Below the pieces are notes generated by a model, which worked only from the letters and a program-made list of their open reading frames with translations, was not told the origin of the DNA and did no database searches. A stretch of DNA of 64,000 nucleotides from Octopus vulgaris (Eukaryota), in NCBI GenBank assembly GCA_951406725.2, contig OX597821.1:51150001-51214000 (forward strand), in the 5' to 3' direction. Below, piece by piece: positions 3,801-64,000 of the stretch; position 1 is the stretch's first letter; each line of letters starts with the position of its first letter. Both the position numbers and the translations under genes were made by a program.

Positions 3801-4330
3801 CTTAGGTCCAGCAAGTAGATTAGCGTTCGAATATGAATATCTGTTTTCCTGCATGAATGATGACGAAATATTCACGCCACAATCTTTGCCATATCAATAA
3901 TGGCAGGTCGTATTCTACTGTATCAAATATGACCATGGAATAACATTGTATCAGGTGAGCCGAGCTCATTGCATTTGTAGTTTTCTGATTTCTCCATTTA
4001 TTGCTGAAGTATATAATCAATAAATACTCAGAGAAGAATACACCGTGTAAAAAGACAGTATCATTGCATAGAAACTGCATATTAAATCTATATTATTGCA
4101 TAGAAACTATGCATAAAAATTATACTATTGCACAGGAACGTAAGGAAAATATTATTATTACATAGGAAGTGTATATAGAGACAACCGAATTGCATTGCAT
4201 TAAAAATAAAATCTGAAATGAAATATTGGGTAAAAAGAAGAACGTAGCGGTATATTTAAGATTAACAAAAACTCAATGATACAGAAATACGAAAGAGAGA
4301 AACTATATATAATAAAATATGATAATATAA

Positions 4331-4372
<42 letters not shown>

Positions 4373-4432
4373 GTGTGTGTACATATATATATACATATAC
4401 ATATACACAAGTAAACACACACACACACACAC

Positions 4433-4467
<35 letters not shown>

Positions 4468-5048
4468 TGTATGTATGTATGTATGCATGCATGTACATAT
4501 GTATGTTATTCGAAATAATGAGCATTGCAGAATTATGGAACAATTGCAACTAAAAGATAATGAAGCAAACATGCGTTAAGATATGCTAATATAATGATCT
4601 AAGGAAATCATTTTCGGTCGAAATATTTTACTTATAGTAACGTTGCGGTTATTATATCAGGAAAGCTAATTAAAGATATCCATACTTACACAAAATTTTA
4701 GTGTTGGGCACCCATAGTGACCAATTAAATAGAAACTGGAAATACGTAGTAGCGCACTTGATACCATACATAGCATGTTTTAATATAATGAAATATTCAT
4801 CTACGTTGAAAAAAGAAAACGACACATATACTTAGCTATACTTGTTTTGCACATATACTTGGCTCCAGCTCTCTTTATCAGCGTTCAAACGGCTAGCGGT
4901 AGTTGCTAGCGACTATCAAAGAAAAAATGGAAGATACTTTGAAGCAGTTAATAAGTAATTGATGTAGTTAATTTACATGCTTATACAATTTGTGTATTAA
5001 TAGTTGATAAGACATGTAATTGAAGATGATAAGGTCTGTAATAGTAGA

Positions 5049-5463
5049 GGCGGCGAGCTGGCAGAAATGTTAGCACGTCGGGCAAAATGTTTAGCAACGT
5101 TTCGTCTGTCATTACGTTCTGAGTTCAAATTCCGCCGAGGTCGACTTTGCCTTTCATCCTTTCGGGGTCGATAACTTAAGTACCGGTTACGCACTGGGGT
5201 CGATATAATCGACTTAATCCGTTTGTCTGTCCTTGTTTGTCCTCTCTGTGTTTAGCCCCTTGTGGGTAGTAAAGAAATAGGTATTTCGTCTGCCGTTACG
5301 TTCTGAGTTCAAATTCCGCCGAGGTCGACTTTGCCTTTCATCCTTTCGGGGTTAATAAATTAAGTACTAGTTACGCACTGGGGTCGATATAATCGACTTA
5401 ATCCGTTTGTCTGTCCTTGTTTGACCCCTCTATGCTTAGCCCCTTGTGGGCAATCAAGAAATA
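5049..5463 (+). mobile_element. tRNA-derived SINE (family A), dimeric insertion with 18-bp TSD
   Basis: Head GGCGGCGAGCTGGCAGAA (A-box-like), GAGTTCAAATTCC (B-box), core GCCTTTCATCCTTTCGGGGTCGATAA; second unit starts at GGTATTTCGTCTG (~5280); TSD AAGGTCTGTAATAGTAGA at 5031-5048 and 5464-5481. Confidence 0.92.
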
Positions 5464-5643
5464 AAGGTCTGTAATAGTAGATGGTAATCTGTGTCATAGA
5501 AACTGGAAAATTTGCCATAGAATATGATAGATATCGAATGATAATATGTGCAATAGCGGCTGGAAGGTATGCAAAAGACGATGTTAGATGTAATTATTTT
5601 GTTACGTTATTTTATCAAATTTTATTTTATCAAATTTATACCA

Positions 5644-5686
5644 AACTAGCACTATGACCCGGCAACGCCGGGTCATAATCCTAGTT
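5644..5686. mobile_element. Helitron-like terminus (GC-rich hairpin followed by CTAG)
   Basis: AACTAG-cac-TATGACCCGGC-aac-GCCGGGTCATA-atc-CTAGTT; a hairpin just upstream of CTAG|T is the Helitron 3' signature. Confidence 0.55.
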
Positions 5687-5779
5687 ATCTATAATTGTAG
5701 AAACTTACTGCCGACAAAGGTTACGTGTCGTTCAATGAATAAATAAATGAAGAAATAAATGAAAAAATACATATATATA

Positions 5780-5947
5780 TGTGTGTGTATTTATAACTAA
5801 TTACCTTACAACTGGTGTTGGTTGGTTTACCTCCCCGTAAGCAACCGATACTCTAAGTGCTGGGAGTCGATTCTTCAACTAAAACCCTTCAAGGCTGTGC
5901 CCCAACACGGCCGCCGTCCAATTACTTAAACACACAAAAACAAAAGA
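5780..5947 (+). mobile_element. SINE family B, degenerate 3' fragment
   Basis: GGCTGTGCCCCAACACGGCCGCCGTCC...AAACAC resembles the family B tail GGCGGTGCTCCAGCATGGCCGCAGTC...GAAACAAG. Confidence 0.6.
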
Positions 5948-28330: not shown

Positions 28331-29057
28331 GGCTTGTGGGCTTGTGTCGAACAACTGCTGTCACGTGTGGGACGAGTCGGTTTATCAGCTGAGTCTATCG
28401 TTAATATTGTCACGCCTCCCTCCTTCAAACGGGAAGGAAGAGCTATTTTCATCATCCTTGTGGCTATGGCGAAAGAATGTATCTGGTGGACGCGTCTGAA
28501 AGGATTGGAGACAAACACTTTCCTCTCTGGTCAATCTCTCATCAACTTCTTCAAGTACCACTTGAAAAGGAAAGTGAGAGTAGAGAGGCAAGTTTTGTCT
28601 AGCGAACGTTTTAAAAAAAGATGGGTGAATGTAGCAAGAATGGCACGTATGAATGACGAAGCCACCTTGAGCATGATCCTATGAACCCAGAAATTGAAAA
28701 CAGAGAGTTGCTTATTTGCAAAAAAAAAAAAAAAAGAAATATAACATGTGACTCCATTGACCGAGGTTACCGTGGTCTTTTCCGTAGGCTTTTCTTTCCA
28801 CGGGTAAACCTCACCTGTCCTCCCCTTTACACTTCATATTGACATTTCTGTGATAACGATCCCTATTGATCAATTTTTTTTTTCCTCTCCCCCTTTTTTT
28901 AACCCCCTTTTTTTGTCCTCTTTCTCTCCTTTTACGATCCCTTTTGATCGAAACTCCCCCTTCCTTTCTTTTTTTTTTTTTTAAATCTTCAAAAGAAAAG
29001 CTCTACCTTGTAATTTGTTCTATCTGTGTGCAGCCCTGTGTGGCTAATAAAGAAACA
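28331..29057 (+). mobile_element. 5'-truncated L1/Tx1-clade non-LTR retrotransposon (ORF2 C-terminus and 3' UTR) with 13-bp TSD
   Basis: Open frame LWACVEQLL...AKECIWWTR...F.KRW...L* to 28684, near-identical to the copy at 63127 that carries the CCHC zinc finger; pyrimidine-rich 3' UTR ending GGCTAATAAAGAAACA; TSD TATCTACTCTGGG at 28318-28330 and 29058-29070. Confidence 0.9.
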
Positions 29058-44772: not shown

Positions 44773-45150
44773 TTTGGAAACATTAGAACCAACATTGTGC
44801 TTGTGTTTGTCCTTCACCGTGGAGGCGCGTGGCTTAGAGGTTAGGGTGTTGAACTCATAATCGTAAGGTTGTGGTTTCGATTCCTTGACCACGTGATGCG
44901 TTGTGTTCTTGAGCAAAACACCTTATTTCACGTTGCTCCAGTCCACTCAGCAGGATTACTCATTTTTGCCGGCTGAGTGGACTGGAGCAACGTGAAATAA
45001 GGTGTTTTGCTCAAGAACACAACGCATCACGTGGTCAAGGAATCGAAACCACAACCTTACGATTATGAGTTCAACACCCTAACCTCTAAGCCACGCGCCT
45101 CCACGGTGAAGGACAAACACAAGCACAATGTTGGTTCTAATGTTTCCAAA
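44773..45150. repeat. Perfect inverted repeat, 179-bp arms with 20-bp spacer, containing SINE D 5' halves
   Basis: 44773-44951 is the exact reverse complement of 44972-45150 as read by eye. Confidence 0.95.
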
Positions 45151-48573: not shown

Positions 48574-48802
48574 CTATATCTATAATTAGATAAATACACA
48601 CACACACACGTATAAATGTATACATATATATATATATATATATATATAAAATAATAGTAATCGCCATACTAATATGGCATTCTTATAAAAATAAGAAAAA
48701 AGCTGTCCGCTTATTAGCTCCATGAAGCCATCGCCTTAAGTTAGCTATTTGATACACAAACTGTATCCATATAACCTTCGAACAAGGGAGGTCAGTCGCT
48801 CC

Positions 48803-48880
48803 ACACTACTTGACCGGCAGCTACAGACGCGTTTCGGAGTATTGCCCCTTTTCAATGCAGCGTAGCCAGCCAGTAGGTGT
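48803..48880 (-). ncRNA. Type I hammerhead ribozyme (U3-A8 variant) with extended stem I
   Basis: Core 48861->48820: GCUGCA UUGAAAA GGGG-CAAUA-CUCC GAAA CGCG UC^ UGUAGC; stem I extends through GGCUGGC/GCCGGUC and CUACU/AGUAG; predicted cut between 48826 and 48825. Confidence 0.85.
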
Positions 48881-49181
48881 CGCTTCCGACAATCTCTGTT
48901 CGATGGTTTTATTTACCTAGTTTCGGTGGAATACATCCACTTGTTTTCAATAATAGAAATATTAAAATAACTAAGTCTCTCTAAAAGAGAACAGCGGCAG
49001 CGTTCCCGGAAAATAATAGTAATCGCCATACTAATATGGCATTCTTATAAAAATAAGAAAAAAGCTGTCCGCTTATTAGCTCCATGAGGCCATCGCCTTA
49101 AGTTAGCTATTTGATACACAAACTGTATCCATATAACCTTCGAACAAGGGAGGTCAGTCGCTCCACACTACTTGACCGGCA

Positions 49182-49223
49182 GCTACAGACGCGTTTCGGA
49201 GTATTGCCCCTTTTCAATGCAGC
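49182..49223 (-). ncRNA. Type I hammerhead ribozyme, second copy
   Basis: Identical 42-nt core 362 bp away; predicted cut between 49188 and 49187; the distal 5' arm of stem I is lost at the inversion junction. Confidence 0.82.
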
Positions 49224-49338
49224 GGACAGCTTTTTTCTTATTTTTATAAGAATGCCATATTAGTATGGCGATTACTATTATTTTCCGGGAACGCTGCCGC
49301 TGTTCTCTTTTAGAGAGACTTAGTTATTTTAATATTTC

Positions 49339-49375
<37 letters not shown>

Positions 49376-63067: not shown

Positions 63068-63126
<59 letters not shown>
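62782..63126. repeat. (TATC)n/(TGTC)n microsatellite at the 5' junction of a LINE
   Basis: Directly visible, with a higher-order 12-mer TCTATCTATCTG. Confidence 0.95.
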
Positions 63127-64000
63127 GACCCGCCTGTTTCAAACGACTTTCGGCCCGGGACCTATGGACAACTTCCAGAGATCCCTGGCCTGGCGGTGCT
63201 ACCGAGAAGCGCTACCCGTTCGGGATAAGCTCTATAGGCATGGCTCGAGAAACACGGGGCCGACCTGCCCGAGATGCGGGCAGGGCGACGAAACCGCTCT
63301 GCACGCAATCGTGCAGTGTCCAGCAATTTCCGACCTGTGGGCTTATGTCGAACGACTGCTGTCACGTGTGGGACGTGTCGGTTTATCAGCCGAGTCTATC
63401 GTTAATATCGTCACGCCTCCTTCCTTCAAACGGGAAGGAAGAGCTATTTTTATCATACTTGTGGCTATGGCGAAAGAATGTATCTGGTGGACGCGCCTGA
63501 AAGGATTAGAGACAAACACTTTCCTCTCTGGTCAATCTCTCATCAACTTCTTCAAGTATCACTTGAAGAGGAAAGTGAGAGTAGAGAGGCAAGTTTTGTC
63601 TAGTGAATGTTTTAAAAAAAGATGGGTGAATGTAGCAAGGATGGCACGTATGAATGACGAAGCCACCTTGACTATGATTCTATGAACCATAAAAATTAAT
63701 ACAGAGAGTTGCTTATTTGCAAAAAAAAAAAAAAGAAATATAACATGTGACTTCACTGACCGAGGTTACCGTGGTCTTTTCCGTAGGCTTTTCTTTCCAC
63801 GGGTAAACCTCACCTGTTCTCCCCCTTTACACTTCATATTGACATTTCTGTGATAACGATCCCTATTGAAAAATAATTTGCTCTGCCCCCACCTTTTTTT
63901 TTTTTTTTTTTGTTATTAACCCCTCCCCTTTTTTTTGTCCTCTGTCTTTCCTTTTACGATCCCTTTTGATCGAAAACCACCACTCCCTTTTTTTTACCCC
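63127..64000 (+). mobile_element. 5'-truncated L1/Tx1-clade non-LTR retrotransposon (zf-RVT, C-terminus, 3' UTR), running off the window
   Basis: Uninterrupted frame to 63685 containing WR...ALPV...L...CPRCGQGDETALHAIVQCP...LW (C-x2-C-x8-H-x4-C zinc knuckle of L1/Tx1 ORF2); 3' UTR near-identical to 28685-28980. Confidence 0.92.

Follow-up and report, generated by a model that had tools for sequence, protein, structure and literature searches.

The insertion at positions 48648 to 49344 of the window, by which we mean the whole stretch of 64,000 nucleotides of Octopus vulgaris DNA that was analysed, is a copy of a large, young, non-autonomous retrozyme family. The explanation that best accounts for its structure, with a probability of roughly 0.68, is that of a non-coding non-LTR retrozyme mobilised in trans by a Penelope-like RT-GIY-YIG protein of the Neptune or Nematis type. 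Tandem copies would be transcribed, paired hammerheads, with helix III completed through palindromes, would excise monomers of 362 nt, as structure and covariation suggest, and each monomer would be closed to a circle or be held end-to-end by helix I. The helper would then nick both strands of an (AT)n target and prime cDNAs at two sites, A and B, of the same RNA, a step for which the A+B pattern is observed in the insertions and the enzymology is extrapolated from an anole Penelope-like element (PLE). Each reverse transcription may run for only part of a round or for up to about ten rounds, and the joining of two cDNAs at a microhomology would give the tandem and the inverted arm that are seen in the DNA. 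A young L1/Tx1-like LINE, for its part, inserts specifically into the multicopy retrozyme.

Anatomy of the insertion and its ribozyme

The features of the insertion are as follows, with monomer positions numbered from the first base past the predicted cut.

48648..49344, whole insertion, 697 bp, with a 577-nt direct arm and a 124-nt inverted arm
48648..49224, minus strand, direct arm, monomer positions 326-362, 1-362 and 1-178, its 3' end being site B
49221..49344, plus strand, inverted arm, monomer positions 115-238, its 3' end being site A
48826..49187, minus strand, monomer of 362 nt between two predicted cleavage sites, non-coding, 41% GC
48648..48654, minus strand, site B, monomer ~172-178, one of two fixed 3' ends and putative start of reverse transcription
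49339..49344, plus strand, site A, monomer ~233-238, the other fixed 3' end, in the RNA 60 nt downstream of site B
48950..49009, minus strand, the 60-nt 'tail' from site B to site A in the full monomer
49182..49223, minus strand, upstream hammerhead with a U3-A8 core and the proximal part of helix I only, predicted to cut at 49188/49187
48811..48873, minus strand, complete downstream hammerhead, whose helix I is extended, predicted to cut at 48826/48825 and with the palindrome of helix III at 48827-48832
49021, minus strand, private allele at monomer position 167, with further copies at 48659 in the direct arm and at 49273 in the inverted arm
48871..48887, minus strand, target of the LINE, monomer 301-317, empty in the window

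The two arms are joined through a microhomology of 4 nt (49221-49224), and the inverted arm is a perfect inverted copy of 48950-49073. An earlier note on this DNA overlooked these last 124 nt and ended the element at 49343, one position short of its end at 49344, while its account of 215-nt direct repeats (48648-48862 and 49010-49224) with one difference is correct, the sole difference lying at 48726. Both sides of the insertion are occupied by an (AT)n microsatellite, in which a target duplication is not resolvable. The unit had been said to hold no credible ORF, and once circularised the monomer indeed offers no Met-started ORF longer than 38 aa; three small hairpins are present as quoted, but the quotation follows the plus strand and not the strand of the RNA. 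Elsewhere in the window, at 44773-45150, two arms of 182 nt, 99% complementary and 14 nt apart, form a head-to-head copy of a SINE-like repeat.

It is clear that the two identical minus-strand motifs first noticed 362 bp apart are hammerhead-like, with cores at 49217-49188 and 48855-48826. They are the only matches in the window to a descriptor that calls for helix I of at least 6 bp, helix II of at least 4 bp, a palindromic helix III and either C3-G8 or U3-A8, and none was found in 100 Markov-resampled sequences of 64 kb. The downstream motif is complete; the upstream one retains just the proximal 6 bp of helix I, because the distal 5' strand has been cut off by the inversion junction. The core reads UUGAAAA, so that U3-A8 replaces the usual C3-G8 pair, a variant that had gone unrecognised. 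Its elements (U3 U4 G5 A6 N7 A8 A9, GAA, A-U and C17) are invariant among 18 variants save for N7. A search with the Rfam hammerhead models, a check that the earlier note had proposed, gave no match to the U3-A8 motif, as would be expected from the variant core and a helix III of 2 bp. Hammerheads with U3-A8 are natural and active (PMC3088659), and have been reported in Schistosoma PLEs (Cervera and de la Pena, 2014, PMC4209133). The octopus ribozyme resembles the minimal hammerhead of Schistosoma Cercyon described there in its U3-A8 core and in a palindromic helix III suited to dimers. The label of a 'minimal' type I ribozyme is nonetheless not borne out: minimal PLE hammerheads are described as having a helix II of 7-8 bp, a helix I of 4-5 bp and a poorly defined loop 1 (PMC4209133), whereas the octopus form has a helix II of 4 bp, a helix I of 5-6 bp with a distal extension, and a short palindromic helix III. 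By the definitions given in that source, and judged by its predicted geometry, the ribozyme is a canonical metazoan type I hammerhead.

Variation within the family is consistent with this fold. Across the 18 variants, which span the subfamilies, 97.4% of cells are paired, with changes on both sides at the base of helix II (AU 11, GC 4, GU 3) and in the helix III palindrome (AU 9, GC 5, UA 3) and changes on one side in helix I. None of 500 shuffles reached as high a value for paired cells and score; pair counts and pair-type counts were not above shuffles (412/500 and 442/500), and the 18 rows are related, with few independent events among them. Conservation of the core across genomic copies, on which the earlier reading had been made to depend, is found, together with compensatory changes across subfamilies. 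Helix III is palindromic in 99 of the 100 cores listed, with three different palindromes. The predicted fold of the monomer contains helices I and II and lacks helix III, which fits cleavage as a dimer, and the circular fold has a z of -7.2 for the monomer and of -5.5 for subfamily 2. Dimeric hammerheads of PLEs were reportedly described by Lunse in 2017. Only one of nine Xenopus retrozyme dimers was cleaved in vitro (bioRxiv 10.64898/2026.07.22.740005).

The family, its insertion ends and its candidate helpers

A search of 2.8 Gb in 227 contigs returned 1,866 matches to the core pattern, against none for the reversed control, and one 26-mer has 1,136 exact matches genome-wide. Copies of the monomer lie scattered as arrays that reach about ten units and are 99% identical (40 of 1,025 candidates scored), and there are at least four subfamilies, the older of which, at ~81-92% identity, keep a unit of 362-365 nt and the same ends. 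The 129 insertions examined comprise 49 older ones and 80 of subfamily 1, the latter made up of 20 from the array search, 47 taken in order along contig 1 and 13 further arrays. A supposed 'third subfamily' at one locus (L066) was set aside, since the AT-rich copies there are degraded or mis-assembled; they lie in long AT runs and are possibly assembly errors. Near-identical monomers also occur in public sequencing runs under three organism labels (X1 and X15 under A, X3 under B, X12 under C).

The family shows what is expected of non-LTR retrozymes: its tandem monomers are non-coding, fall within 170-400 nt and carry a single type I hammerhead apiece, and its copies are dispersed and mobile, with no RT ORF attached in the flanks searched. 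The closest likeness is to the metazoan non-LTR retrozymes of Cervera and de la Pena (2020, PMC7229834), especially the 350-390-bp repeats of mussels, with which it shares tandem non-coding monomers of 170-400 nt, a GC content below 45%, one canonical type I hammerhead in each monomer, dispersal as dimers to multimers, a structured monomer and the co-existence of PLEs. The retrozymes of that study are described with a C3-G8 core, unlike the U3-A8 core found here, and their cleavage and circles were shown, whereas both are predicted in the octopus family. Fixed ends A and B, inversions and (AT)n targeting, all characteristic of the octopus family, were not found described in that source, and its main text does not mention cephalopods.

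The ends of the insertions bear on how the family moves. Among 142 arms, a count in which one duplicated insertion is included twice, 71 end at site A, 61 at site B and 10 elsewhere, so that 132 of the 142 end at one of just two places, and (AT)n adjoins 123 of these 132 ends. The 59 two-armed insertions of subfamily 1 divide into 51 A+B, 1 A+A, 0 B+B and 7 unclassed (binomial p 2e-14), with the reservation that B+B insertions shorter than the monomer could not enter the sample from chromosome 1 (contig 1), while A+A insertions could. The 29 two-armed insertions of the older subfamilies divide into 19 A+B, 0 A+A, 0 B+B and 10 unclassed. PLEs with an endonuclease (EN+) are known for inversions and for a 'tail' that is often present at one end only (Craig et al., 2021, PMC8557442), and this one-end rule can be quantified in the retrozyme family, where 70 of 71 classed two-armed insertions have one A end and one B end, the Penelope 'tail' signature. 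The 'tail' and the ~50 nt after it are also the best conserved part of the monomer between subfamilies (93%, alignment columns 201-290). The PLE protein of the anole nicks and extends both strands, and two internal starts of reverse transcription delimit the tail (Frangieh et al., 2024, PMC11167929), from which we infer twin priming by a PLE dimer, with one start per strand. The retrozyme departs from the EN+ PLEs of these sources (tail 30-40 nt) in lacking an ORF and in its tail of 60 nt. Two alternative 3' ends, 5' inversion and a microsatellite target together are the marks of a non-autonomous element mobilised by a PLE, and re-insertion by a helper RT, as the earlier note had supposed, is supported by this anatomy in the more specific form of a Penelope-type helper. 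Several observations stand beside these counts: the sole A+A insertion (L022) has flanks that are inverted too, as a fold-back; one insertion (L122) is duplicated 1.1 kb apart; and rare insertions outside microsatellites have short target duplications (L096 and L021, ~12-14 bp and ~8 bp).

An alternative is that these copies are what 5' truncation has left of the pLTRs of an ordinary autonomous Penelope, made tandem by later DNA recombination and gene conversion. The hammerhead core of the older subfamilies is the same as that of a local Neptune-like family, and the search for an attached ORF covered flanks of 1.2-4 kb with a single query, the 781-aa protein of a local PLE. Within that scope, none of the 129 insertions is joined to an RT/GIY-YIG ORF, the outcome by which the earlier note had proposed to tell an independent retrozyme from an ordinary pLTR, and the family is therefore taken to be independent and non-autonomous. 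The few RT matches are separate fragments in the flanks (three flanks among 80 insertions, two loci of subfamily 2 and 1 of 20 in another set). On their 5' sides the insertions pass into further monomers, an inverted arm or host DNA, multimers can occupy both arms (L009, L025 and L127), and four subfamilies keep the unit of 362-365 nt, all of which makes a truncated pLTR very improbable. The insertion in the window likewise lacks the RT and GIY-YIG ORF between pLTRs that defines an autonomous EN+ PLE.

Neptune-like candidate helpers exist in the genome, where 148 of 150 scored candidates, from 6,136 in all, are RT+GIY-YIG elements. One young RT-GIY-YIG family, with a protein of 781 aa, has a U3-A8 hammerhead, a CxxxxCxxC linker and (AT)n targets, and its two ends lie 36-40 nt apart, giving a tail of 36-40 nt and not of 60. 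The local alignment of the monomer with the 3' end of this family scores below shuffles, and just the hammerhead core is common to both. Comparison of the monomer with 30 + 20 GIY-YIG loci and two full elements found no parent with an alignable pLTR among these 52 PLE loci (of the 6,136 GIY-YIG candidates), the sole match being a separate subfamily-2 insertion (L049). Among the PLEs seen along the way, a young Neptune-like element (L062:1930-7172, and L063) has 456-nt pLTRs that are 99.3% alike, a 359-aa ORF upstream of the 781-aa RT-GIY-YIG ORF and a U3-A8 hammerhead, and another Neptune-like family (L104) ends, ~750 nt past its ORF, with a U3-A8 hammerhead-like motif that has GCAA in place of GAAA, a helix II of 4 bp and a palindromic helix III. 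A PLE origin and dependence have also been argued for non-LTR retrozymes of vertebrates by Li, Clavereau and Pollet (2026, bioRxiv 10.64898/2026.07.22.740005). Their evidence consists of co-occurrence and pLTR homology, whereas that for the octopus family, for which no parent pLTR was found among the 52 loci, consists of insertion anatomy and allele sharing.

Circle, linear multimer or jumping polymerase

The template is best approached through alleles. At monomer position 167 the insertion in the window carries T in 3/3 copies, two in the direct arm and one in the inverted arm, and the 26-mer with 167T has two matches genome-wide, in this insertion only, compared with 1,136 for the 167A version. 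A second such allele, 271T, is present in 4/4 copies of another insertion (L129) and has no match elsewhere in the genome. That an allele is private and yet found in all three copies favours repeated copying of one monomer, a process that was proposed, not shown, in the account of metazoan retrozymes (PMC7229834). The third allele tested genome-wide, 150T, was rejected as private, with 23 matches at ~13 places, and marks a sub-lineage; the apparent presence of 167T at a second locus (L132) was rejected as an alignment artefact. In 78 insertions, scored after removal of segments below 95% identity, 70 alleles proved fixed within their insertion, 9 partial and 134 single, the partly shared ones including 2/6 copies in L018 and 2/10 in L064. 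Common polymorphisms are almost never mixed within one insertion (219 in 0/58, 128 in 1/69 and 350 in 2/47), and divergence amounts to 0.32% inside an arm, 0.36% from one arm to the other and 1.08% between insertions. As judged from these patterns, the template was probably an RNA circle of 362 nt. Li et al. (2026) attribute arrays to local amplification, for example by unequal crossover, whereas the octopus data favour arrays made at insertion.

The 5' ends of the arms bear on whether the RNA was cut. Ten of 132 lie at positions 1-6, where 2.6 would be expected (p ~1e-4), and this excess is a hint of cutting in vivo. A larger cluster of 28 of the 132 lies at positions 30-49 (49158-49139 in the window), six of them at position 39; 16 of these 28 arms cross a cut site, and the 28 include 8/20 single-arm insertions, with 5' ends at 34-45. 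The cluster may mark the transcription start of uncut multimers, or a recurring stop of reverse transcription. If it is a start, the template could be an uncut linear multimer that begins near 39 and derives from source arrays, with a hammerhead that acts rarely or in 5' trimming and with circles absent or incidental. The cluster of ends between 30 and 49 is accounted for in this way, as are the helix III that is not predicted in the monomer and the nine alleles only partly shared within an insertion, and uncut RNA is the main in vitro substrate of the anole PLE, whose ribozyme mutants were still inserted (PMC11167929). Fixation of 167T and 271T in consecutive monomers, and common polymorphisms that are hardly ever mixed, would each time call for a homogeneous source array that is absent from the assembly; such an array is needed because duplication at the DNA level cannot make the second direct copy in one of the insertions (L001). 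A linear multimer is accordingly considered unlikely, though it is the leading alternative to the circle.

Template jumping is a known activity of non-LTR reverse transcriptases. The polymerase might thus pass from the 5' end of a cut linear monomer to the 3' end of the same molecule, the two being held together by helix I, which is predicted to form in the linear monomer, so that no covalent circle would be required. Private alleles would be fixed and 5' ends would gather at 1-6 in this case also. Jumps of this kind would be expected to leave scars, and 178 of 183 cut-site junctions are intact, the other five having substitutions or truncations and no added or lost bases, which makes end-to-end jumping distinctly improbable in comparison with copying of a circle.

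Two further lines of enquiry were followed. The stretch occurs in 20 of 24 rows of public runs, from 13 studies and seven organism labels, none of them on record as RNA, and in two of four runs (X1 and X12) a contig of 392 nt closes on itself with a period of 362. This contig was rejected as evidence of a circle because the same joint is present in a DNA-like run (X15) and in the genomic arrays. Box-like words near positions 10-20 and 43-51 are what we take to be possible Pol III boxes. An internal Pol III promoter was rejected, since the T6 and T5 runs at ~125-139 would end Pol III transcription upstream of both site B and site A.

A LINE that homes to the retrozyme

A young LINE homes specifically to positions 301-317 of the retrozyme monomer, and by its domains and targeting it appears to be L1/Tx1-like. 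One array (L065, contig 1) is interrupted by a LINE of 5.3 kb (L065:2591-7943) with intact ORFs, an ORF1 of 370 aa with a zinc knuckle and an ORF2 of 1,140 aa with the domain order APE-RT-zinc, and the nearest named match is a pol-like protein of Ciona at 27%. The target lies 62 nt upstream of the predicted cut site. A search with the 3' region of the LINE, the target excluded, gave 30 loci, and monomer position ~301 comes next in 20/20 copies that are at least 98.9% identical and in 0/10 of the others. The pattern of the LINE 3' end has 31 matches genome-wide, a count that omits ends with C at the last pattern place, and is followed by the retrozyme target in 21 (16 loci), by U1 in one and by other DNA in nine. 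At the 5' side, 12 of the 13 junctions located adjoin monomer position 317, giving duplications of 16-17 bp; the sample was of 19 stretches, of which three were for older copies, two had no LINE start and one was a 3' check. At their 3' junction the inserted LINEs lack a poly(A) run, the hammerhead downstream of them is intact, and a hammerhead lies upstream in some hosts only. The hosts differ in structure and in subfamily alleles. Hitch-hiking of the LINE in one composite element was rejected, as host architecture, flanks and alleles differ among LINEs that are ~99% alike. Five tandem LINE copies stand at one locus on contig 2, and LINE copies were also recorded in L202-L221. The window itself holds 3' remnants of LINEs related to ORF2 of the homing LINE (63125-63664 and 28331-28663, 49% and 41% identity).

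Older relatives of the LINE, 92-97% identical, are tied to the 5' end of U1 snRNA (L229:1837-2000; L247:1432-1448): one copy precedes a complete U1 gene (125 bits), and another bears the initial 17 nt of U1 at its 5' terminus. Downstream of several further old copies the sequence reads (C/T)ATAC. In the endonuclease of one U1-linked copy ~13 of 240 residues differ, but the decay of this copy prevents any of them from being named as a specificity residue. Two related ORF1-only elements of 1.6-1.7 kb occupy the same target in subfamily 2 (L198:2242-3960, 4240-5817), each with a 450-aa ORF at 30% to ORF1 of the LINE and one with an 18-bp duplication, which shows that the site was used earlier too.

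Features expected of target-specific LINEs of the Tx1 clade are present, namely an ORF1 zinc knuckle, an ORF2 with APE, RT and zinc domains, one target and duplications. Known targets in this clade include Tx1D for Tx1L, Mariner-N4 for Tx1-Mar and U2 for Keno (Kojima, 2015, PMC4494074), and the octopus LINE resembles these elements in its APE-RT, its 16-17-bp duplications, its tandem runs of LINE, duplication and LINE, and its choice of a multicopy element. It differs from those described there in that its target is a retrozyme bearing a ribozyme and in that its older relatives are tied to the 5' end of U1 snRNA.

This LINE might itself be thought the helper that mobilises the retrozyme, since it is young, its ORFs are intact and it is found physically linked to the family. 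The two leave different traces, however, duplications of 16-17 bp at a fixed target other than (AT)n for the LINE, and A/B ends, inversions and (AT)n for the retrozyme; monomer and LINE have no 3' tail in common, and the LINE copies sit inside finished A+B insertions. A role for the LINE as helper is scarcely credible, and a PLE-type helper remains the preferred reading.

A broader view is offered tentatively, and would sooner prove wrong than right. There would be three tiers of parasites: circles of hammerhead RNA would be copied by a Neptune-type PLE through rolling-circle priming at two sites, and a LINE lineage that uses the 5' end of U1 snRNA as well would have shifted to the retrozyme as its target and would borrow its ribozyme. 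Read-through LINE RNA would be cut 62 nt past the end of the LINE, and the resulting 3' trailer, identical to the target DNA, would guide re-insertion. The targeting is observed directly (21/31 ends), while the borrowing of the ribozyme and the direction of the target shift are conjectured.

The kind of element represented by the retrozyme is already known, and the octopus family, its core variant and its homing LINE were not found in print. A literature search outside subscription journals, Repbase and Dfam found no published hammerhead family of cephalopods and no published LINE that targets a retrozyme or U1. The interest of the finding lies less in the retrozyme itself than in the mechanistic read-out and the homing LINE. 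How animal retrozymes move is still a matter of hypothesis, be it the circle, the PLE helper or the tandem cDNA, and this family is young and large enough for the mechanism to be read from the DNA, in the pairing of one A end with one B end in each insertion and in single-template alleles that recur in every repeat and in both arms. It provides a substrate of 362 nt with mapped start sites on which rolling-circle priming by a Penelope RT could be tested, and with which it can be asked whether each subunit of a PLE dimer uses one start site. The homing LINE and its close relatives tied to U1 form a natural pair for the study of how a retrotransposon changes its choice of target.
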